Assembly: GCA_964369435.1 (NCBI GenBank)
Contig: CAYJGP010000001.1
Location: forward strand, 1-44,555
Source: an uncultured Oscillospiraceae bacterium
GTDB lineage: Bacteria > Bacillota > Clostridia > Oscillospirales > Ruminococcaceae
Reading direction: 5' to 3'
DNA length: 44,555 bases
Shown here: positions 158-36,954 of the stretch, piece by piece
Position numbering within the stretch: position 1 is the first letter of the stretch
How the letters are laid out: each line of letters starts with the position of its first letter
Translations under genes and position numbers: made by a program
The notes under the pieces: model-generated
Seen by the model: only the letters and a program-made list of their open reading frames with translations
What the model was told of the DNA's origin: nothing
Databases searched by the model: none

Positions 158-531
158 AGAGAAAAAAATAATTTTTTTTAAAATTTTTATATTTTTTAAA
201 AAGATGTGTATTTTAAGAGTTTTTTTCTGATTTATGCCAAGAAAATTTGACTTATTATATCGATGTTTACAGCTTTTGGTTGTTTAATTTAGAAATATTT
301 AGCTATCGTTATCTGGTGCCTGTAAGCGGTTTTCACTTCTGTGCAATTTTGATTGTTAAATGTTACCAAGGAGTGAAAGTTTGGATTATGACGGTGGTTA
401 TAAGCTTTAGATTAAGGGTATTGGGTTTGAGGATTTATTTCTAACGTCTGAAGCTTGCATAGTGAATTTTAATTTTTTTAAGGTTTGTTTTAAAGATTTG
501 TTTTTGATTTTTAGATATCTGGGTTTTGGTG

Positions 532-904: not shown

Positions 905-2071
905 TTATCCAAGTAGCTGTAGAACGCCTTGAGGAATCATGTTTGCCTGTGAAAGCATCGACTGTGAAGCCTGAACTAGGATGTTGTTCTTTGTGAATGC
1001 CATCATCTCAGCGGCCATGTCAACATCGCGGATACGAGATTCAGCAGCTGTCATGTTCTCAGATGTAACTCCGAGGTTATTTATTGTGTGCTCAAGTCTA
1101 TTTTGAATAGCACCGAGGTCACCACGAGTTGAAGAAACAGATGTTATTGCTATTTTGATATTGCCTATAGCTTTGTCAGCGCCTTCTTCTGTTGTGATAT
1201 CAACATCAGCAATTCCAAGTGATTGAGCGTCCATGTTGCGAATACCAACAGAAACTTTCTGTGAAGGATCTGCAGTGTCGCCAACCTGTAGATTTAATGC
1301 GTCGCCTTCAACTTCTGTTATTGTTGCTGAAACATCAGCTGTAGGTGTTACATAAGCACCAGTCATACGAACACTACCAACTGCGCCAGATATAGCATCT
1401 TTAAATGCAGCTTCTGATAGAGCATCTCCTGCGGCTCCGCCACCTGCTGCTGTTGAAGCAATGCCAGCTCCTGTAACTGTGATAGTTAGAATTCCACCTG
1501 ATACAGCGGCTGTAACTTCAGCGTCTGAACCATCAGTAGTATCTGTTGCAGCTGTGCCGTCAGCGTATACTAGCTCTACAGATGTGATTGAAGCGTCAAG
1601 TCCTTCGAGTGCAAATCCGCCGACTGCAGTAGAAGTAACTGTATCTGGTTCCATGCTTCCATCAAGTAGGTTTATGCCATTGAAGTTTGTGTTTTCAGCG
1701 ATTCTGTCAATCTCATCAAGTAGTGAGTCAACTTCTGCTTGCAAGCTTGCTCTGTCTGATGTATCGTATGTACCGTTAGCTGACTGAGTTGCAAGTTCTA
1801 CCATTCTGTTTAGCATTGAGTGAACTTCTGTTAGAGCACCTTCAGCTGTTTGAACAAGTGATATACCATCTTGAGCATTTTTCTGAGCTGTTTCGAGTCC
1901 CTGGATTTGAGCTCTCATTTTTTCAGAAATCGCAAGACCTGCAGCGTCGTCGCCTGCTCTGTTGATTCTGTAACCTGAAGATAGTTTCTCAAGGTTTTTG
2001 CCTATCATAGAGTTGTTGTTTGTAAGTTGTCTGTGTGCATTTAATGCAGCGATATTGTGTTGTATACGCAT
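905..2071 (-). CDS. fliC: Flagellin (388 aa)
   Basis: The conserved N-terminus is MRIQHNIAALNAHRQL...GYRINRAGDDAAGLAISEKMRAQIQGL. The conserved C-terminus is LGAIQNRLEHTINNL...QANMIPQGVLQLLG. The central region is T/S/A/G-rich and variable. ATG at 2069-2071 follows GGGAGGA; the longer ORF start at 2287 is rejected. Confidence 0.95.
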   Translation of the reverse strand: MRIQHNIAALNAHRQLTNNNSMIGKNLEKLSSGYRINRAGDDAAGLAISEKMRAQIQGLETAQKNAQDGISLVQTAEGALTEVHSMLNRMVELATQSANGTYDTSDRASLQAEVDSLLDEIDRIAENTNFNGINLLDGSMEPDTVTSTAVGGFALEGLDASITSVELVYADGTAATDTTDGSDAEVTAAVSGGILTITVTGAGIASTAAGGGAAGDALSEAAFKDAISGAVGSVRMTGAYVTPTADVSATITEVEGDALNLQVGDTADPSQKVSVGIRNMDAQSLGIADVDITTEEGADKAIGNIKIAITSVSSTRGDLGAIQNRLEHTINNLGVTSENMTAAESRIRDVDMAAEMMAFTKNNILVQASQSMLSQANMIPQGVLQLLG

Positions 2072-2079
2072 AATTTTTT

Positions 2080-2114
2080 CCTCCCTGAATTTTAAATCTT
2101 TATTACTTCCTTGT
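2080..2114 (-). promoter_or_regulatory. fliC leader with Shine-Dalgarno sequence and two CsrA-type GGA sites
   Basis: The minus strand has ACAAGGAAG (2106-2114) and TTCAGGGAGGAA overlapping the SD (2080-2087). These closely resemble the two CsrA sites of the B. subtilis hag leader. Confidence 0.5.
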
Positions 2115-2175
2115 ATTCGAAAACTTTTTTCGAAAACCTCTTTGCGATTGTTTTCTTCAACCGCCGTTGATTTAT

Positions 2176-2202
2176 ATATCGTCGGACTTTTTAAAAAGTT
2201 TA
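2176..2202 (-). promoter_or_regulatory. Sigma-28 (SigD/FliA)-type promoter of fliC
   Basis: The minus strand reads TAAA-N15-GACGATAT, a 7/8 match to GCCGATAT with canonical spacing, about 105 nt upstream of the ATG. Confidence 0.6.
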
Positions 2203-2333
2203 GTGTTTTTTCTAAAAAAAATTTAAAAAAATTAATTCTGGAAGAATAAATATGCGGTTTTTGCGGATAAACACTTGATTTAATCAAAATATAATTATTA
2301 ATATATTTTATCGTTTTAAAGGTTTATAAAATA

Positions 2334-24427: not shown

Positions 24428-26830
24428 ATGGAACTTAATCTTGATAGAGCAACCCTTAAAAATCTTTTTGAGTATAAGCTGCAGGTAACATACGATAAAA
24501 GATTGACAGACGCAACGAACGAAGAAATCTACAATGTGATGGCGATTACTGTAAATGAGATACTAAACTCAAAAGCAATTCGCTACCGCAATAAAGTGCG
24601 CGACCATAAATCAAAGAGGATATATTATATTTGTCTTGAGTTTTTGGTTGGACGTAGCTTTAAAAACAATCTTTTAAATCTAGGTCTTTATGAAACTTGT
24701 GAGGCTGTTTTAGCCGAGAGCGGGATAAATCTCGAGAAGGTTTTGGACATAGAGCCTGATGCGGGACTTGGAAACGGTGGCCTTGGACGACTTGCCTCTT
24801 GTTTTCTCGATGGAATGGCAACGCAAGGGTACCCAGCTATTGGATATTCTATTCTCTATGAATACGGAATATTTAAGCAAAAACTTGTCGATGGATGGCA
24901 ACATGAACAACCAGACGACTGGCTTGAAAACGGAAGTGTTTGGTTAAATAAAGCAACTGAGGATACTGTTGAAGTGCGCTTTGGCGGTAGAATTGAGGAG
25001 CATTGGAGCGAGAAGCACAATGGCGTTACCCATCTTGATTACCAGAATGTTCACGCAGTGCCGTATGATATGATTATAAGCGGACATAAAACCGATAGCG
25101 TTGCTACCTTAAGGCTATTTAAGGCAAATAGCCCGTCGATTGATATGAATCTTTTCAACTCAGGCGACTATCTAGGTGCGGCGGCGCAAAGCTCTCTCTC
25201 GGAGGCGATTAGTAAGGTTTTATATCCGAATGATAACCACCGCGAGGGCAAAAGCCTAAGACTTCGTCAGCAGTATTTTCTATGTGCCGCATCTATTACC
25301 GATATTATAAAAAGGCATATTGCGGTTTATGGAAAGCTTGAGAATTTCAGCGATATGGTTGCAATTCATATAAACGATACACATCCAGCGCTTGCGATAG
25401 CTGAGCTTATGAGAATTTTAATAGATGAGTGCGGATACAGCTGGGATAATGCGTGGGATACGACTACAAAAACTTTTGCCTATACAAATCACACAGTTAT
25501 GAAAGAAGCTCTCGAGCAGTGGGATATAGGACTTATAAAAGAGCTTCTACCTCGTATTTTCACGATAATTTGTGAGATAAACCGCAGATTTGTTGAAGAG
25601 TGTAGAGATGATGAAGTACCAGAAAGCGCTATTCGCAATATGGAGATTGTCAGTGGAAACAAAATTAAGATGGGTAATCTATCGGTAATTGGTTCTCACT
25701 CGGTAAACGGTGTTTCAAAGCTTCACTCAGAGATTATTAAGCAGTCGGTGTTCCGTGATTTCTATAATCTAAGTCCGTATAAATTTACAAATGTTACAAA
25801 CGGAATTGCATATAGAAGATGGCTTTATCAGAGTAATCGTCCGCTATATGATTTGGCGTGCAAACTCTCAGGTGAAGATGTTAATAAAAATCCACTTGCA
25901 CTTAAAAAGATGGAAAAATTTGCCGACGATAAAAAGGTGCTTGAAGAGATAATCAAGATAAAAAGAGGGGCAAAAGAGCGGTTTGCAGATTTTATGCTTC
26001 GTGAAACGGGTGAAGTGCTAAATCCTGATTCAATTTTTGATGTCCAGGTAAAGAGGCTTCATGAGTATAAGAGACAGCATCTAAATGCTCTGCATATTTT
26101 AGCTCTCTACAATGCTATTAAGCAAAACCCAAATGGTAACTATACCCCAAGAACCTATATTTTCGGAGCAAAGTCGGCGCCAGGGTACTACCTTGCAAAG
26201 CAGATTATCAGATTTATCTGCTCTATTGCAAAGCTTGTAAATAACGATCCACAGACTAAAGATCTGCTAAAAGTTATCTACCTTGAAGACTATTCGGTAA
26301 CAAAGAGCGAGATTTTGATGCCTGCCGCTGATATTTCAGAACAAATTTCACTTGCAGGAACAGAAGCTTCAGGTACAGGTAATATGAAGTTTATGATAAA
26401 TGGTGCTATTACCTTAGGTACATTAGACGGCGCAAATGTCGAGATATACGATGCTGTTGGCGAGGATAATATGATCCTGTTTGGACTGCGCACTGAAGAG
26501 GTAAACGCCCTAAAACAGAGCTACAATCCAATCGATTACTACCGCCAAAATGAAGTTATAAGAAATGCACTCGACTACTGTGAAAACGGAAGTCTTGGAT
26601 ATAACTTCTCAGATATCGTCATAAACCTTAAAAACACAGATCCTTATATGGTTTTTGCAGATTTCGACAGCTATATTGCGGCACAGCGAAAAGTTGCAGA
26701 GATATATTCAGACAAGATGGGATTTGCAAAGAAGAGTCTTATAAACACAGCAAATGCAGGTATATTTGCAGCAGATAGAAGTGTTTCTGAGTATGCTATG
26801 AATATATGGGATGTTGCAGCGCTACATTAG
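24428..26830 (+). CDS. glgP: Glycogen/maltodextrin phosphorylase
   Basis: It has the PLP-site signature EASGTGNMKFMINGA and is 800 aa long. The RBS is GGAGGTGG. Confidence 0.95.
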   Translation: MELNLDRATLKNLFEYKLQVTYDKRLTDATNEEIYNVMAITVNEILNSKAIRYRNKVRDHKSKRIYYICLEFLVGRSFKNNLLNLGLYETCEAVLAESGINLEKVLDIEPDAGLGNGGLGRLASCFLDGMATQGYPAIGYSILYEYGIFKQKLVDGWQHEQPDDWLENGSVWLNKATEDTVEVRFGGRIEEHWSEKHNGVTHLDYQNVHAVPYDMIISGHKTDSVATLRLFKANSPSIDMNLFNSGDYLGAAAQSSLSEAISKVLYPNDNHREGKSLRLRQQYFLCAASITDIIKRHIAVYGKLENFSDMVAIHINDTHPALAIAELMRILIDECGYSWDNAWDTTTKTFAYTNHTVMKEALEQWDIGLIKELLPRIFTIICEINRRFVEECRDDEVPESAIRNMEIVSGNKIKMGNLSVIGSHSVNGVSKLHSEIIKQSVFRDFYNLSPYKFTNVTNGIAYRRWLYQSNRPLYDLACKLSGEDVNKNPLALKKMEKFADDKKVLEEIIKIKRGAKERFADFMLRETGEVLNPDSIFDVQVKRLHEYKRQHLNALHILALYNAIKQNPNGNYTPRTYIFGAKSAPGYYLAKQIIRFICSIAKLVNNDPQTKDLLKVIYLEDYSVTKSEILMPAADISEQISLAGTEASGTGNMKFMINGAITLGTLDGANVEIYDAVGEDNMILFGLRTEEVNALKQSYNPIDYYRQNEVIRNALDYCENGSLGYNFSDIVINLKNTDPYMVFADFDSYIAAQRKVAEIYSDKMGFAKKSLINTANAGIFAADRSVSEYAMNIWDVAALH

Positions 26831-26890
26831 TGGTAGAAAAGCAGCTTAAAAGTGAATGGTTTAGATTTTCATAAATATTAATAGTCAGAT

Positions 26891-26933
26891 AAGCACCTCT
26901 TTTGGGTTTGTAGCCCAGAAGAGGTGCTTTTAT
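26891..26933 (+). terminator. Intrinsic terminator of glgP
   Basis: AAGCACCTCTT pairs with AAGAGGTGCTT, and an inner TGGG/CCCA extends the stem. TTTTA follows. Confidence 0.8.
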
Positions 26934-27006
26934 GGGTTTTGGATGGGTTATCGGTTACAAAAAGGAAAGAAGGTAAAAAGTTTTTACCTAATGAAGAGAG
27001 GATGAG

Positions 27007-27114
27007 GAAGCTTTGCCGGCGCAGCGGATAAACCCACCGCGGTGGGTTTATTCGCGCTATATGCGACTTTGGCGAGTGTTAAGTCTCGCCAAAACGCTGC
27101 GCCGGCAAAGCTTC
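27007..27114. other. GC-rich cloverleaf inverted-repeat element B (MITE-like: 20-bp perfect terminal inverted repeats, flanking GATGAG direct repeat)
   Basis: GAAGCTTTGCCGGCGCAGCG (27007-27026) is the exact reverse complement of 27095-27114. Inside are hairpins at 27029-27050 (a 22-nt perfect palindrome), 27052-27066 and 27068-27093. GATGAG occurs at both 27001-27006 and 27115-27120. Confidence 0.65.
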
Positions 27115-27275
27115 GATGAGCTGTACTTATAGATGAATTTGTTAAAAGATACAAATCGGTTAAACGTTGCGTTTTAACTAAAATTACAACAGCTTATTTG
27201 TGCAGTTTAATTATCCTAAATAATTTCAAAATATGGTATTATTATAGTTAAAGATTTCAAGGAGGGATGTTTGGT

Positions 27276-30345: not shown

Positions 30346-31152
30346 ATGTTTAAAAATTTAGGGAACAAAAAACTAGTTCTTGGTCTTGTACACCTACTAC
30401 CAATGCCAAGTACCCCACTTTACGAAGAGGGAAATGTTGAGAAGATGCTCGACAAAGCGCTAAAAGACGTAACTGCTCTTAAAAATGGTGGTGCTGACGG
30501 TTGTCTACTACAGGCAGTTGATGGCATTTATGATGACAAAGATGATACAGATTATGCAAGAGTTGCAACTCTTTCGATGATCGGTGCACGTGTTCGTGAT
30601 CTTATGGGTCCAGACTTTAAAATTGGCGTTCAGCTAATGTGGAACTGTATAACTCCATCGCTTGCTGTTGCTAAAGCTTGTGGAGCTGATTTTACAAGGT
30701 GTAGCGTTCTAGTTGGCGAGAGCCAGGGAATGATTGGAACTGTTAAAGCTGAAACTGCTAAAGTTATGCATTATAGAAACCTTATAGGCGCTAAAGGCGT
30801 TTCAATGATAAGTGAAATCGCAGGATACCACTTTAAAGGTACTGGTGATCTCGGTCAGATTAAAGATCTTACAATGCGTTCAATGAGAGCTGGCGCTAAC
30901 GCTATTGAGATATACAACAAAGACGAAGAGCTCAATGAAACACTTGTTAAAACAGTTAAAGAGCTTGGCGATGTTCCTGTAATCCTCGGTGGTGGAACAG
31001 ATGTTGAGAACTGCAAAAGAAGACTTAAAACTGCAAATGCTGCACTTGTTGGAACCTGCTTTGAGGGCGGCAACTGGGGCGGACCTGTTATCGAGAGCAT
31101 CGTTGCTGAGTACTGCAAAAATGTTCGCGAGCTAGAGCGTGAGCTCGGCTAA
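30346..31152 (+). CDS. BtpA/SgcQ-family TIM-barrel protein
   Basis: The N-terminal LGLVHLLPMPSTP motif is typical of the BtpA family, and a C-terminal GGG...VGTCFE follows. The RBS is GGGAGG. Confidence 0.7.
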   Translation: MFKNLGNKKLVLGLVHLLPMPSTPLYEEGNVEKMLDKALKDVTALKNGGADGCLLQAVDGIYDDKDDTDYARVATLSMIGARVRDLMGPDFKIGVQLMWNCITPSLAVAKACGADFTRCSVLVGESQGMIGTVKAETAKVMHYRNLIGAKGVSMISEIAGYHFKGTGDLGQIKDLTMRSMRAGANAIEIYNKDEELNETLVKTVKELGDVPVILGGGTDVENCKRRLKTANAALVGTCFEGGNWGGPVIESIVAEYCKNVRELERELG

Positions 31153-31248
31153 GAATAGCGACTGTTTTAGGTGAAAACCAAAAACAAGATAGATAAATTT
31201 ATCAAAAAGTTGTCTTATAACGACTACTGATAAATAAATATTTCAATA

Positions 31249-31287
31249 AACAGATATGAGTTATTTAATTCATATCTGTTTTCTTAT
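31249..31287 (+). terminator. Intrinsic terminator of the PfkB/SIS/BtpA operon
   Basis: AAACAGATATGA pairs with TCATATCTGTTT, followed by TC-TTAT. Confidence 0.7.
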
Positions 31288-31353
31288 ATAAATAAATCAA
31301 ATATTAAATCTTTAATATTCTCTTAATGTTTACAGTGAAAAATGTTAGCACTC

Positions 31354-31382
31354 TTGAAAATTCATGTAAACAGTGTTATGAT
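31354..31382 (+). promoter_or_regulatory. Sigma-70-type promoter of the ABC operon
   Basis: TTGAAA-N17-TATGAT. A copy of ATGTAAACAGTG lies in the spacer. Confidence 0.5.
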
Positions 31383-31470
31383 AATTTAGTGATAAAATTC
31401 GGAAAATTTAGTAAATAAGAGTGAAACATAATTTAGCTTTTTACACACTAGATATAAAAGGGGTGAATAG

Positions 31471-32175
31471 ATGGAGGAGAAAAATGTTATCGAAGTTCAA
31501 GGCCTTAAAAAGATATACAGGATAGGCAATGAGAAGGTTCGAGCGCTCGATGGTGTTGATTTAACTGTCAAAAAGGGCGAAATATGCTGTCTTCTCGGCG
31601 TTTCAGGTTCCGGTAAAAGTACGCTTCTCAACATGCTTGCAGGGCTTGAGAAACCGAGTAAAGGCGAGATAAAAATACTTGGCAAGAATATACGGAAATT
31701 CTCAGAAGCAATGTTATCGAAGTTTAGAATGGAGCATTTTGGGTTTGTTTTTCAATCATATAACCTACTAGCGCCGCTAACTGCGATAGAGAATGTAACG
31801 CTTCCGCTTATCTTTAAAGGAATACCGAATAAAGCACGGCAGAAGAAGGCAAACAGTATTTTAAAAGCGGTCGGACTCGGAGATAGAATGAAACATAAGC
31901 CGACACAGATGAGTGGTGGACAGCAACAGAGGGTTGGAATTGCCCGTGCATTTATCGACTATCCAGATATAGTTTTTGCAGATGAGCCGACAGGTAACCT
32001 CGATACAAAAACTACAAACGAGGTTATGGATATGATGGTTCGAATGACTAAAGAGCGAAACAATACGCTGATTATAGTTACACATAATAATGAAATAGCC
32101 GAGTATGCAGACCATGTTATACATCTGCGTGACGGAGTAGTGATAAATGAATATTATAAAGAAGAGGTGCAGTGA
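31471..32175 (+). CDS. ABC transporter ATP-binding protein (MacB/LolD/FtsE-type)
   Basis: It has Walker A GVSGSGKST, the signature MSGGQQQRV and Walker B IVFADEPT. Confidence 0.93.
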   Translation: MEEKNVIEVQGLKKIYRIGNEKVRALDGVDLTVKKGEICCLLGVSGSGKSTLLNMLAGLEKPSKGEIKILGKNIRKFSEAMLSKFRMEHFGFVFQSYNLLAPLTAIENVTLPLIFKGIPNKARQKKANSILKAVGLGDRMKHKPTQMSGGQQQRVGIARAFIDYPDIVFADEPTGNLDTKTTNEVMDMMVRMTKERNNTLIIVTHNNEIAEYADHVIHLRDGVVINEYYKEEVQ

Positions 32176-33610: not shown

Positions 33611-34982
33611 TGTATTAAAGCTCGCCTTTAAAAACTTCGGCAGAAGAAAAGCTCGAAGTGTCCTGACGATACTCGGTGTTGTTATAGGTACTATGGCGGT
33701 TGTGATAATGATATCAATAGGTCAGGGTCTTTCGCATTCGATGATGGAACAGTTTGAAAGTTTTGGCAGTCTTAATGAGGTCACTGTCCGCAAAGGGTGG
33801 GACGAAGCATCACAAGATGTTTATCTTGATGATGACCTCCTAGAGGCTATCCGTATGATGCCACAGGTGGATAATGTGCTCGGTAAAAAGAGCTACTCAG
33901 CGCTTATTATAAACGGCAAAGAGCAGGCTTGGGCTCAACTTTACGGTGTTGACCCTGAGAGTTACGACGCTCTCGGTAAAGATTTTTATCAGGGTGACGG
34001 TATTCTCACAGGCAGTGGTAACAGGATAGTTCTAAGCTATACCTCACTGTTCGAGTTCCAAAATCCAAACAAAGACTATGAATGGAAACAACCGCAAGAC
34101 GAAGAGGGCAACTGGTTGCCACCACCGTTCGATCCATTTGATACAACACTAAAACTAACATTTGATACAAATTATGGTTATGGCGCAATCTCATCAAGAC
34201 CTAAGATGTATACACTTGAAGTAGTCGGAATTTCAGAGCCCGGTTGGACTAATGACAGCTGGAACAGCTATATGTCTATCGAAACGCTTGAAAAGTTATA
34301 TAAAGACTATGAGAGAACTCTACCACCAGACCAACAAGGTCAAGGTAGCGGTGGGGATACAGTATATTATAGCGATTATGGTGTAATGAGTTATTCGAGC
34401 AGTGGTAGTAGTTCTTCAGGACAGAATAAAGATAAGTACGATGAGATTGTTGTAAACGTCCCTGATACCGAAGATGTTTTAGATGTTCAGAATACACTAA
34501 CCGAGATGGGTTATCAGGCGAATAGTAACATGGAATATATCGAACAGACACAAGAACAGATGGCGCTTATCCAGCTAATACTTGGTGGTATAGGAGCTAT
34601 TGCGTTCCTTGTTGCAGCACTTGGTATTGCGAATACCATGATAATGTCTATCTATGAGCGAACAAAAGAGATAGGTATTATGAAAGTTATCGGCTGTAAA
34701 CTTGGAAACCTACGCTCACTGTTCCTTACAGAGGCGGCTATTATAGGTTTTCTCGGCGGTATTGTCGGTGTTGGACTAAGCTATGCTATTTCAAACGTTA
34801 TAAATTCGGTTGCGAGCGGCGGAATGTCTGGAATGGGAACAGGCTCAACCGTTTCAATAATTCCACTTTGGCTTGCTCTTGCAGGAATAGCGATTTCAAC
34901 ATTTGTCGGCATTGTTTCGGGAACATATCCCGCTATTCGTGCTACAAGGCTATCGGCTATTGAAGCTATCAGAAATGAGTAA
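33597..34982 (+). CDS. ABC transporter permease, MacB/FtsX family with a large extracytoplasmic domain
   Basis: It has an N-terminal TM segment, an extracytoplasmic domain of about 290 aa, and a C-terminal FtsX-type 3-TM bundle (IGIMKVIGCKLGNLRSLFLTEA). Confidence 0.9.
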   Translation: MKKIDVLKLAFKNFGRRKARSVLTILGVVIGTMAVVIMISIGQGLSHSMMEQFESFGSLNEVTVRKGWDEASQDVYLDDDLLEAIRMMPQVDNVLGKKSYSALIINGKEQAWAQLYGVDPESYDALGKDFYQGDGILTGSGNRIVLSYTSLFEFQNPNKDYEWKQPQDEEGNWLPPPFDPFDTTLKLTFDTNYGYGAISSRPKMYTLEVVGISEPGWTNDSWNSYMSIETLEKLYKDYERTLPPDQQGQGSGGDTVYYSDYGVMSYSSSGSSSSGQNKDKYDEIVVNVPDTEDVLDVQNTLTEMGYQANSNMEYIEQTQEQMALIQLILGGIGAIAFLVAALGIANTMIMSIYERTKEIGIMKVIGCKLGNLRSLFLTEAAIIGFLGGIVGVGLSYAISNVINSVASGGMSGMGTGSTVSIIPLWLALAGIAISTFVGIVSGTYPAIRATRLSAIEAIRNE

Positions 34983-34996
34983 AAGTTAGTTTATAT

Positions 34997-35026
34997 AAAA
35001 AGCGATGTGATTACACATCGCTTTTT
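34997..35026 (+). terminator. Intrinsic terminator of the ABC operon
   Basis: AAAAAGCGATGTG-ATTA-CACATCGCTTTTT. Confidence 0.85.
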
Positions 35027-35138
35027 ACTTTTGTTTAAGGTTAAATTTATTTTGTTTTCTCTACACTATCGAGTAACAACTTTAAGTTTTGCATCTTTTG
35101 AGTATAAGAGTTTTTTGATAAAGGTATAGAGGCTAGGG

Positions 35139-35233
35139 CACTGCCCGCCCGCTATGGCGAACTTTCAGTTCGCCGTTGTCGAGCGAGACTCGACCAAACG
35201 CACTTTTAGTGCGTTTATTGCGGGCGGGCAGTG
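35139..35233. other. GC-rich four-way-junction (cloverleaf-like) inverted-repeat element C
   Basis: The outer 14-bp perfect stem CACTGCCCGCCCGC/GCGGGCGGGCAGTG encloses three perfect hairpins with 5-nt loops: GGCGAAC/GTTCGCC (35156-35174), GTCGAG/CTCGAC (35178-35194) and AAACGCAC/GTGCGTTT (35196-35216). GC is about 59% by hand count. Confidence 0.65.
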
Positions 35234-35269
35234 ACAAGAGCGCAGAATTTAAAACAAAATTGAACTTTA

Positions 35270-35298
35270 TTGACAGTAACTTAAAACTGTGATATCAT
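35270..35298 (+). promoter_or_regulatory. Sigma-70-type promoter of padR-MFS
   Basis: TTGACA-N17-TATCAT. Confidence 0.7.
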
Positions 35299-35329
35299 TA
35301 TATCGAAAATCGATATCGCATTTCGATAT
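35291..35329 (+). promoter_or_regulatory. Array of ATATCG/CGATAT half-sites (putative PadR operator) overlapping the -10 box and transcription start
   Basis: GATATC sits at 35291-35296. ATATCGA-AAA-TCGATAT spans 35300-35316 and ATATCG-CATTT-CGATAT spans 35313-35329. Confidence 0.55.
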
Positions 35330-35359
35330 TAAATAAAATTAATAAATATAAGGAGAATT

Positions 35360-35662
35360 ATGGATAATCAAGTACTTAGAAAATTGTTTTTAGGGTTTAT
35401 ACAAATTCATATTTTGCACCATGCAAAAGAGAAACCTATTTTTGGCTCATTTATGATTGAGGAGTTGCGCTCGCATGGTTACGATATAAGCCCTGGAACG
35501 CTCTATCCGATTTTTCATAATTTAGAGAAATCAGGACAGTTGTTATCAGAGCGTAAGAAATATCAAGGTAAAATCCGTAAATACTACACAATTACAAAAA
35601 AAGGCGAAGAGACACTGATTGAAGCGCGCAAAAAGATTAAGGAGTTGACAGGTGAGCTATGA
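35360..35662 (+). CDS. PadR-family transcriptional regulator
   Basis: ILHHAKEKPIFGSFMIEELRSHGYDISPGTLYPIFHNLEKSG...RKYYTITKKGE is a winged-helix PadR signature. Confidence 0.9.
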   Translation: MDNQVLRKLFLGFIQIHILHHAKEKPIFGSFMIEELRSHGYDISPGTLYPIFHNLEKSGQLLSERKKYQGKIRKYYTITKKGEETLIEARKKIKELTGEL

Positions 35663-36900
35663 GTTCGAAGATACAAAAAGATATTTTAAGAGACTTTCAA
35701 GTAAAGAAATTTTGTCTTTATGGATTTCTAAAAAACTTGAAGTTTTTTGAGCCGTATTTGATAATCTATCTGATGAGCAAAGGTATTAACCTTTTTCAGT
35801 TGGGTATATTGATTGCAGCTCGAGAGGTAATTGTGAATATTTTCGAGATTCCCTCAGGGTTTATCGCAGACTATTTCGGAAGAAAAAAAGAGTTATATTT
35901 TTGTTTTGGATTTTATATAGCTTCGTTTGTTTTTTTCTTTTTAACAAACGGTTTTTTTCTCGCAACGTGCGGTATGGTATTCTTCGGGCTTGGAGAGGCA
36001 TTTCGCTCGGGAACGCATAAGGCGATGATATATTCATACTTAGATGAAAAAGGTTGGCAAGATGAAAAGACATTTGTATATGGTAGAACGAGGTCGTTTT
36101 CGCTTATTGGAAGTGCGCTCAGCAGCTTAGTAGGAATTTTTTTAATCCTTGCAGTTCCTTCAGATAGCTATATATTTCTCTTTTCGGTAGTGCCATACAT
36201 ATTAGATTTATTTCTTATAATGAGTTACCCTGCCTTTTTAGATATTGCCGATAAAAAGCACGAAATGACTATCAAAGAGATGGCAACGGCACTTTTTCAA
36301 AGTTTCAGATTAAATATAAATCTCAGAAACCTGTTAGTTGAAGAGGGGATGTCGGAGGCTGCCTTTTCATACGTAAAGGATTTAATTCAACCGATTATCG
36401 AGGCAATAATCGTCACAAGTGGGTTTGTGGTGATAACATCGGTAACGGTTGAGGATAATCTAAAAATCGTACTGGGTCTTACCTATGCAATTCTAAATAT
36501 TGTCGGCTCCTATTTTTCAAAAAAAGCATACATTATTAAAGGGTCAAGAACAAGTGCTAACTGCTTGTTTATCGCACATATTGGATACAGCGCACTCTTT
36601 TTATTACTAGCGCTTTTCACGAAGATGTATATAATTGTTTTTGTATTATATCTGTTTATCTTTATATTAAACAACGTTCGCAAACCAATATTCGTTGATG
36701 AAATAGATAACAACATAGAAAAATCAAGTAGAGCGACGATTATAAGCGCCTCGGCACAGCTAAAGTCGTTATTCCTTATGGTATTTGCACCAGTTCTGGG
36801 TTTTGTAGCAGATAAAACCGGATTTAGTTTGGTTATGGTTATACTGGCAATTATTTTTGCAATAACAATACCACTGCTTTTGCGAAAATCAAATGGTTAA
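35659..36900 (+). CDS. MFS-type transporter
   Basis: It has about 12 TM segments, a loop GRKK motif after TM2, and an ATGA overlap with padR. Confidence 0.8.
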   Translation: MSSKIQKDILRDFQVKKFCLYGFLKNLKFFEPYLIIYLMSKGINLFQLGILIAAREVIVNIFEIPSGFIADYFGRKKELYFCFGFYIASFVFFFLTNGFFLATCGMVFFGLGEAFRSGTHKAMIYSYLDEKGWQDEKTFVYGRTRSFSLIGSALSSLVGIFLILAVPSDSYIFLFSVVPYILDLFLIMSYPAFLDIADKKHEMTIKEMATALFQSFRLNINLRNLLVEEGMSEAAFSYVKDLIQPIIEAIIVTSGFVVITSVTVEDNLKIVLGLTYAILNIVGSYFSKKAYIIKGSRTSANCLFIAHIGYSALFLLLALFTKMYIIVFVLYLFIFILNNVRKPIFVDEIDNNIEKSSRATIISASAQLKSLFLMVFAPVLGFVADKTGFSLVMVILAIIFAITIPLLLRKSNG

Positions 36901-36904
36901 AAAC

Positions 36905-36934
36905 AAAAAACGATGTGTTAACACATCGTTTTTT
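36905..36934. terminator. Bidirectional intrinsic terminator shared by the MFS gene and the convergent yfhO-family gene
   Basis: AAAAAACGATGTG-TTAA-CACATCGTTTTTT. Confidence 0.85.
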
Positions 36935-36954
36935 GTTTTGTGCATGAGTATTAA

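Follow-up and report, generated by a model that had tools for sequence, protein, structure and literature searches.

What kind of element is the compact, GC-rich cloverleaf that separates an ABC-transporter operon from a padR gene on the chromosome of an uncultured Oscillospiraceae bacterium: a structured RNA, a signal for the neighboring genes, or a DNA repeat that works by folding? The element in question, here called element C, occupies positions 35139-35233 of the 44,555-nt stretch of contig CAYJGP010000001.1 that we analyzed (the window), which is the entire contig and represents 44.5 kb of core chromosome. It is close to certain that element C belongs to a repeated structured family, and this family is previously undescribed. 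Its four-helix architecture is conserved with compensatory changes, its stems are Watson-Crick paired on both strands, and its copies are found in both orientations and, at the same junctions, are not alike from one related genome to another. We consider it reasonably probable, with reservations that are set out below, that element C is one copy of a lineage-specific, multi-copy family of GC-rich nested-palindrome DNA repeats that acts as folded DNA, in the manner of repetitive extragenic palindromic (REP) sequences or of MITEs (miniature inverted-repeat transposable elements).

The anatomy of element C is unusually regular. Its outer stem is a perfect 14-bp helix, recovered by an inverted-repeat search, in which the 5′ arm (35139-35152, CACTGCCCGCCCGC) is the exact reverse complement of the 3′ arm (35220-35233, GCGGGCGGGCAGTG). 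This stem encloses three hairpins, each with a perfect stem and a 5-nt loop: hairpin 1 (35156-35174, GGCGAAC-TTTCA-GTTCGCC), hairpin 2 (35178-35194, GTCGAG-CGAGA-CTCGAC) and hairpin 3 (35196-35216, AAACGCAC-TTTTA-GTGCGTTT). The linkers between the helices are, in order, TAT, GTT, C, and ATT (3, 3, 1, and 3 nt). Over its 95 nt the element has a GC fraction of 0.59, compared with 39% for the window. It is assigned to neither strand. The minimum-energy fold of both strands is the same four-way junction; in the orientation of the family model described below it reads on the plus strand. Folded as RNA, the two strands reach −64.1 and −65.7 kcal/mol (z = −9.2 and −10.8), with none of 200 shuffles equally stable, and folded as DNA they reach −43.6 and −43.0 kcal/mol (z = −11.1 and −10.8), all z-scores being calculated against dinucleotide-preserving shuffles.

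The element stands apart from the transcription signals that surround it. Upstream lies the intrinsic terminator of the ABC-transporter operon (34996-35027, plus strand), which is outside the element, and 37 nt downstream begins a sigma-70-type padR promoter (35270-35298, plus strand; TTGACA-17-TATCAT, with TG before it) that was graded as strong; the padR gene itself was identified by the PadR domain of its protein. A terminator consensus scan of 34900-35400 matched only the hairpin at 34996-35027, no T-run follows position 35233 on the plus strand or position 35139 on the minus strand, and no promoter-like site was seen ahead of element C on either strand. We therefore rejected an intrinsic terminator as the identity of the element. 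A transfer RNA (tRNA) or tRNA-like cloverleaf was likewise rejected, given the 14-bp outer stem (10-20 bp in the family), the unconserved loops and an ARAGORN search of the window that returned neither tRNA nor tmRNA. These results bear out an initial annotation, made from the sequence of this DNA alone, which had described a compact four-way junction at exactly this position, placed it between the ABC operon terminator and the padR promoter, and argued that it was neither a terminator nor a tRNA.

Two further elements in the window follow the same plan of an outer stem enclosing three hairpins. When the whole window was scanned in 110-nt segments the three most stable were elements B, C, and A, with the fourth approximately 15 kcal/mol weaker. 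Element B (27007-27114, 108 nt) has three hairpins, of which the middle one is weak, inside a perfect outer stem of 20 bp; it reads on the minus strand in the family-model orientation, lies between the terminator of a glycogen phosphorylase gene and a pfkB operon, and has a 6-bp direct repeat on its two sides (GATGAG when read on the plus strand). Element A (531-622, 92 nt, plus in the family-model orientation) has an outer stem with a 2-nt bulge around its three hairpins and lies downstream of a flagellin gene on the minus strand. The closest relatives of the window in the searched collections are only two metagenome-assembled genomes of uncultured Oscillospiraceae, both from one study (GCA_964370465.1 and GCA_964369635.1), with 77-83% identity in coding DNA; a scan of a genome collection with the ABC permease returned these two alone. 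Contigs of these sister genomes carry four more clean copies: one in the position of C, between the ABC permease gene and padR (L002 1641-1725, plus; L002e), one upstream of the ABC operon (L001 150-239, minus; L001e), one after the phosphorylase gene (L005 5360-5448, plus; L005 e1) and one after a dCMP deaminase gene (L005 9153-9238, plus; L005 e2). Two more copies are degenerate, one interrupted by an N gap (L008 12684-12787) and one truncated at a contig start (L132 3-97). The clean set thus comprises seven copies in about 126 kb of lineage DNA, a density of about one per 16 kb, and every copy is extragenic.

A covariance model (R1) built on the seven clean copies recovered exactly those seven from 72.8 kb of lineage DNA, with scores of 62-94 bits, and gave 19-50 bits for their reverse strands. 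Element C scored 92.6 bits on the plus strand and 45.3 bits on the minus strand, element A scored 89.7 bits, and for element B the minus strand scored 62.4 bits and the plus strand gave a partial match of 14 bits, in agreement with the earlier suggestion of a likeness between C and the opposite strand of B. Two densely packed syntenic contigs yielded no match to the model, and two more distant relatives gave chance-level scores only (≤12 bits, E ≥ 0.18). Applied to 657 kb of unrelated metagenome DNA, the model returned nothing at E ≤ 0.01. Three homologous loci from other organisms (56-62% identity; two of them at about 60% GC) contained no element. As far as could be sampled, the family is limited to one rare, gut-type and poorly sampled lineage of uncultured Oscillospiraceae. 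The initial annotation had proposed a diverged family rather than a coincidence, and had named a lack of relatives, a lack of covariation or an assembly origin as grounds for giving up the proposal. Relatives, covariation (considered next) and recurrence in three independently assembled genomes were all found, and A, B, C, and the four sister-genome copies share one architecture and partly conserved hairpin sequences.

At least two subfamilies can be distinguished. The C-type copies (C, L002e, L001e, and L005 e2) share 69-80% identity with one another, the two A-type copies (A and L005 e1) share 69%, and element B is an outlier with 42-51% identity to the other copies. The best conserved module is hairpin 3, which reads AAACGCAC...GTGCGTTT in the C-type and GCCGCAC...GTGCGGC in the A-type, and in which four of eight pairs are invariant across the seven copies; hairpin 2 usually opens with GTCG and hairpin 1 with GG(C/T/A)GA, and the 5′ outer arm often ends in GCAG. 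All invariant columns of the alignment fall inside stems. Among the C-type copies, identity is 83% in paired columns and 33%, the level expected by chance, in loops and linkers. The comparison of C with its positional counterpart L002e illustrates this pattern: the stems of hairpins 2 and 3 are identical, hairpin 1 differs by two fully compensated double changes (C-G to T-A), none of the three loops and none of the linkers is the same, and the spacer on either side is unalignable.

The pairing itself is strongly supported. In the model-based alignment of the seven copies, which was fitted to the structure, 91.5% of cells hold standard pairs, as against 34-45% when the partners are slid by one to three columns, and a separate MAFFT alignment returned the same four helices and the same 21 covarying pairs. 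Both sides have changed in those 21 of the 32 pairs, and none of 500 shuffles reached the observed covariation score. The manner in which the pairs have changed is equally distinctive, with 33 double-sided changes to 2 single-sided ones, and with only two G·T pairs among the 262 predicted. The four-way junction described by the initial annotation is therefore both the minimum-energy fold on each strand and a structure conserved by covariation over seven copies.

Each clean copy occupies a long spacer in the same arrangement, in which the copy comes after an intrinsic terminator and before the promoter of the following same-strand gene. With respect to the flanking genes the copies are mixed in orientation; under the family model C, A, L002e, L005 e1, and L005 e2 read on the plus strand and B and L001e on the minus strand. 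What occupies a given junction also changes between genomes. After the phosphorylase gene the window carries B, L005 carries an A-type copy in the opposite orientation, and L008 carries a third, degenerate form, and the spacer upstream of the ABC operon holds a copy in both sister genomes (a clean one in L001, a partial one in L132) and none in the window. Moreover, C is closer to L005 e2, at another locus of another genome (80% identity), than to L002e at its own (71%). The sister assemblies end, or carry a poly-N gap, at places where there is a cloverleaf or one would be expected: contig L001 (3790-3978) stops 190 nt past the permease stop codon, within a GT-rich repeat, L132 (1-100) begins within a partial element, and L008 (12780-12792) has Ns inside the element after the phosphorylase gene. 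Such breaks and gaps are the expected behavior of a multi-copy repeat in short-read assembly. In L002 (1704-1791) a 44-nt unit, starting inside hairpin 3 and including the 3′ outer arm, is present as a tandem duplicate with a 97% match, which has the appearance of slippage during replication of the structure.

The pairing is Watson-Crick and symmetric, the loops are unconstrained, signals for transcription are lacking, orientations are mixed, the copies turn over by position, and assemblies break at them; together these properties point to palindromic DNA repeats rather than to an RNA gene. Families of stem-loop repeats are common in bacterial intergenic DNA (PMC2267715), and REPINs are hairpin-forming repeats that are mobilized by RAYT transposases (PMC3116915). 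From these properties we infer both action at the DNA level and a mode of spread, for which we propose the following model. When a strand of the element becomes transiently single-stranded, during replication, repair or transfer, either strand would fold to the same four-way junction; extruded hairpins are an alternative folded form. A trans-acting protein would then recognize the conserved stems and not the loops, a transposase of the HUH/Y1 type being one possibility, as for REP/REPIN elements or the ends of IS200/IS605. RAYT elements are known mainly from Proteobacteria. In this way the family would persist and spread as a non-autonomous repeat, with its perfect arms kept by selection for hairpin formation, by arm-to-arm correction (through template switching or within-palindrome repair) or by both, and any effects on the host, such as a block to read-through between operons or protection of mRNA 3′ ends, would be secondary.

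Several results weigh against this reading. No transposase, HUH or integrase gene occurs among the proteins of the window. The outer arms are not conserved between copies in the way that is usual for the terminal repeats of MITEs; they vary from CACTGCCCGCCCGC to GAAGCTTTGCCGGCGCAGCG, CCCGCCGCCGGCAG and GCGCCGCATCCCCAG, differ in length, and hold in common only a loose (C)CGCC(C/G)GCAG core that is seen in four copies. At the stem boundary, six copies show no target-site duplication and a possible one is found only at B. We found no empty site that could be set against a filled one with alignable flanks, as synteny breaks at the same junctions; for the spacer that precedes the ABC operon, the genomes do not share the upstream gene either, so that no clean empty site can be aligned there. 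Finally, the identity between copies of 42-80% makes the family older or more diverse than a recently active MITE, and near-perfect stems at such divergence argue for a continuing constraint, which could equally be imposed on RNA.

The same structural evidence must thus be weighed for an RNA. Element C might be a small non-coding RNA or a cis-acting element whose four-way junction is the functional form of a transcript, the covariation reflecting selection on RNA pairing. Strong covariation in all four helices and a very stable fold are what this proposal would predict, and an island of high GC in a 39% GC genome fits it as well, GC-rich islands being a signature by which structured RNAs are found in AT-rich genomes (PMC11109978). 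However, wobble pairs are nearly absent, as the two G·T pairs and the two single-sided changes demonstrate, so that both strands fold equally well, and arm-to-arm correction alone would give double changes without wobble intermediates; covariation is therefore no proof of RNA. The chance-level identity of loops and junctions is unlike that of RNAs that bind ligands or proteins, neither strand offers a promoter, no terminator follows element C, and the copies are mixed in orientation relative to neighboring transcription. Searches against Rfam 15 gave no match at the gathering threshold in the window, L001, L002 or L005, and around C, B, and A they returned only chance-level scores of 13-20 bits at E ≤ 10 or E ≤ 1, compared with thresholds of 34-114 bits. 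We accordingly hold a structured RNA to be unlikely. The tests proposed in the initial annotation had assumed one, and the evidence leans instead to a palindromic repeat at the level of DNA.

A different function is suggested by the DNA on either side of the copies. In all seven, on either strand, G+T content is higher in the 100 nt 5′ of the element than in the 100 nt 3′ of it, and this switch, from a G+T-rich 5′ side, often with short tandem repeats, to a C+A-rich 3′ side, was noted in several tracts (window 300-530 and 680-830; L005 5200-5357 and 5449-5700; L001 240-290). It is unchanged by reverse complementation and is thus independent of the orientation calls. The switch is clear at element A, to the right of which lies a C/A-rich 17-nt tandem repeat (701-797), and is most extreme at L005 e1, where the left flank is a 15-nt repeat, TTGGTGGGGCGGTTT, present in 5.6 copies (L005 5273-5355), and the right flank, at 47% C and 6% G, is C/A-rich over approximately 250 nt. 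Long-range pairing of the GT-rich with the CA-rich flank into an extended hairpin was examined and rejected: such pairing is plausible at L005 e1, where the z-score of −5.1 derives mostly from the cloverleaf itself, and at A the z-score of −1.3 is not significant. Two observations concern the reading frames around element A. The longest flagellin open reading frame (ORF; 905-2287, minus strand) begins at a TTG approximately 72 codons upstream of the conserved N-terminus (MRIQHN...), and the true start is probably the internal ATG, and a plus-strand ORF across the C/A-rich repeat (600-875), which matches no Pfam family, probably does not represent a gene.

These flanks, together with the position of every clean copy between a terminator and the promoter of the next same-strand gene, would suit a bidirectional insulator between operons that is selected by the host, or a protector of the upstream mRNA 3′ end as reported for REP elements. 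In such an arrangement, read-through RNA would meet first a stable structure and then a C/A-rich, G-poor tract able to load Rho, and would stop before the next promoter is reached; the symmetric folding of the element is also appropriate to a device that works both ways. Against this, a good intrinsic terminator is already present upstream at each site, the bias of C over G in the downstream flank is missing at C, L002e, and L005 e2, and neither the conservation of hairpin sequence beyond pairing nor the differences between genomes in the copies found at one junction would be explained. As the primary explanation, insulation or 3′-end protection seems to us doubtful, to the same degree as an RNA, although it could be a role secondary to that of a repeat.

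The gene order around the elements raises the further question of whether they take part in rearrangement. At the element-bearing junctions it differs among the three genomes (window 26830-27267, L005 5137-5797, and L008 12403-13082). In the window and in L008, the phosphorylase gene is succeeded by a pfkB-SIS-BtpA module that is absent from this place in L005, where a 4HBT thioesterase gene follows e1 in place of the pfkB genes that follow B in the window, and the upstream neighbors of the ABC operon are different in each genome (window 31152-31471, L001 1-494, and L132 1-350). One proposal, which we regard as improbable, is that the cloverleaf is the recognition site of an undescribed structure-specific DNA-processing system, acting in transposition, recombination or hairpin replication, that reads the single-stranded four-way junction, generates the GT-rich and CA-rich repeat arms and drives reshuffling on the scale of operons. 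The hairpin stems would then be protein-binding modules, and the two orientations would represent flip and flop forms.

A separate proposal, which we consider distinctly improbable, would make the element an attC-like recombination site that is recognized as folded single-stranded DNA and shuffles operon-sized modules. The conservation of structure with variable sequence is the defining property of attC sites, and it is what we see here; the shifts in gene order beside the elements, at the junction after the phosphorylase gene (window against L005) and upstream of the ABC operon (window, L001, and L008/L132), could be read as its products. The co-location of breakpoints and elements is nevertheless weak evidence, because the spacers between operons must hold both, and the junction between the ABC operon and padR that carries C is syntenic in the window and L002. 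We rejected an attC site in the strict sense: the ends lack the RYYYAAC/GTTRRRY core, the stems are perfect and have no extrahelical bases, and there is no integrase or cassette array nearby, the flanking genes being housekeeping operons with their own promoters. Lastly, a chance palindrome or an assembly artefact, which might be suspected in metagenome-assembled genomes where some copies fall at contig ends or N gaps, has almost no likelihood, since none of the shuffles folded as well and the same architecture recurs, with compensatory differences, both in the window and across four contigs from two other assemblies.

To return to the reading as a palindromic DNA repeat, we asked how closely the family resembles classes that are already known and whether its patterns occur elsewhere. 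Neither of the REP tags (GTAG/CTAC or CGTC/GACG) had a consistent position in the seven copies with 12 nt of flank on each side. A scan of metagenomes with a C-type pattern gave no matches, and an A-type pattern gave 120, all of them in GC-rich unrelated genomes and most of them representing one conserved leader sequence in human-gut contigs; model R1 matched none of the first 100 of these loci at E ≤ 0.01. The leader is an observation in its own right: a highly conserved GC-rich sequence ending in ...TGCCGACAGCCGCACGGCTGTGCGGCTGCCCGACGATTTGAGGATAGAAAGGAAAAGCAATTCATG is common to more than 60 metagenome contigs (L014, L016, and L017 among them), many labeled human gut and unrelated to the cloverleaf family, and some gut bacterium may have it as a conserved element of 5′ regulation. 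Scans of viral contigs gave one chance match inside a coding region and otherwise none, blastn of element C against plasmid records found no match, and the literature yielded general background on stem-loop repeats and no description of this cloverleaf family.

BOX elements of Streptococcus pneumoniae, which stand here with other structured modular repeats of Firmicutes, are modular intergenic elements of approximately 100-200 nt in a low-GC Gram-positive genome, in which the end modules pair and the internal modules form hairpins. The likeness to our family is architectural, both being intergenic with paired ends around internal hairpins, but the modules of BOX have a conserved sequence and do not form perfect palindromes, and the number of boxB units varies. 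The T-shaped terminal hairpins of parvoviruses, such as the inverted terminal repeats of adeno-associated virus, and the multi-palindrome telomeres of Streptomyces also place an outer stem over small palindromes, are GC-rich, fold as single-stranded DNA and have a flip/flop order. They are, however, the ends of linear replicons, where they prime replication, whereas the cloverleaves are internal to a core chromosome and present in many copies. With attC sites the family shares a conserved structure with variable sequence, a similar range of lengths and a proposed action as folded single-stranded DNA, without the R″/R′ core motifs, extrahelical bases, integrase or cassette array. MITEs are similarly short, non-coding, and intergenic, with terminal inverted repeats and the capacity for stable folds, and their presence varies between related genomes, as that of the cloverleaves appears to do, but here the arms vary in sequence and length, target-site duplications are not consistent, and the copies are far more divergent (42-80% identity) than those of typical MITE families, yet their stems are perfect.

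Among the closest parallels are the REP sequences, with the bacterial interspersed mosaic elements (BIMEs) and REPINs that contain them. These are GC-rich palindromic extragenic repeats, multi-copy, often downstream of genes and found in either orientation, which are thought to fold as single-stranded DNA hairpins and whose families persist and diversify within a lineage (PMC3116915, PMC2817692). A REP is nonetheless a single imperfect hairpin of 20-40 nt with a conserved GTAG/CGTC tag, which is absent here, and a REPIN consists of two inverted REPs that form one long hairpin, whereas in element C three different perfect hairpins are held within one closed four-way junction. The GC clusters of yeast mitochondria and the repetitive hairpin-forming elements of sponge mitochondria are likewise GC-rich intergenic palindromes in AT-rich genomes that behave as mobile DNA (PMC4478555, PMC2800124); they belong to organelle genomes, are mostly single or double hairpins and have no sequence in common with the cloverleaf family. 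The nested four-way design with three distinct perfect hairpins thus matches none of the families compared, whether by tools or by description. By analogy, the cloverleaf family would appear to work most like REP/REPIN or BOX elements.

The remaining gene content of the window is that of a core chromosome. It includes genes for flagellin, cell-wall glycosyltransferases, aspS, hisS, mreBCD, a PBP2-type penicillin-binding protein and zapA, followed by glycogen phosphorylase, sugar kinases, the ABC exporter, padR with an MFS transporter, yfhO, alanine racemase and hflX. Directly 3′ of the −10 element of the padR promoter lies an imperfect palindrome (35300-35329, ATATCGAAAATCGAT/ATCGCATTTCGATAT), which from its sequence and position is likely to be a PadR operator used in autoregulation; an exact look-up of the PadR protein of the window returned no record. 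Between the convergent MFS transporter and yfhO genes, a perfect palindrome of 20+20 nt (36900-36939, AAAACAAAAAACGATGTGTT/AACACATCGTTTTTTGTTTT) is a predicted bidirectional terminator, and its GATGTG...CACATC core is similar to the ABC operon terminator at 34996-35027. In L005 (1-240), a hairpin-rich unit of approximately 120 nt occurs twice in tandem directly downstream of a peptidase U32 gene.

The cloverleaf family extends the known range of structured intergenic repeats. Most of what is known of REP, REPIN, BOX, and MITE families comes from cultured Proteobacteria and a small number of pathogens, and here such a family is found in an uncultured lineage of Clostridia, with the unusual design of a closed four-way junction of perfect palindromes whose helices covary without wobble intermediates and whose loops are unconstrained. 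It therefore offers a clean case in which to consider how palindromic DNA stays perfect over species-level divergence, whether through selection on the folded DNA or through correction from arm to arm. There are practical consequences as well, in that comparative pipelines would flag a GC-rich, covarying intergenic motif of this kind as a candidate structured RNA, and that the elements break short-read metagenome assemblies. If it is true that a dedicated enzyme reads the junction, the family would represent a new mode of structure-specific DNA recognition.

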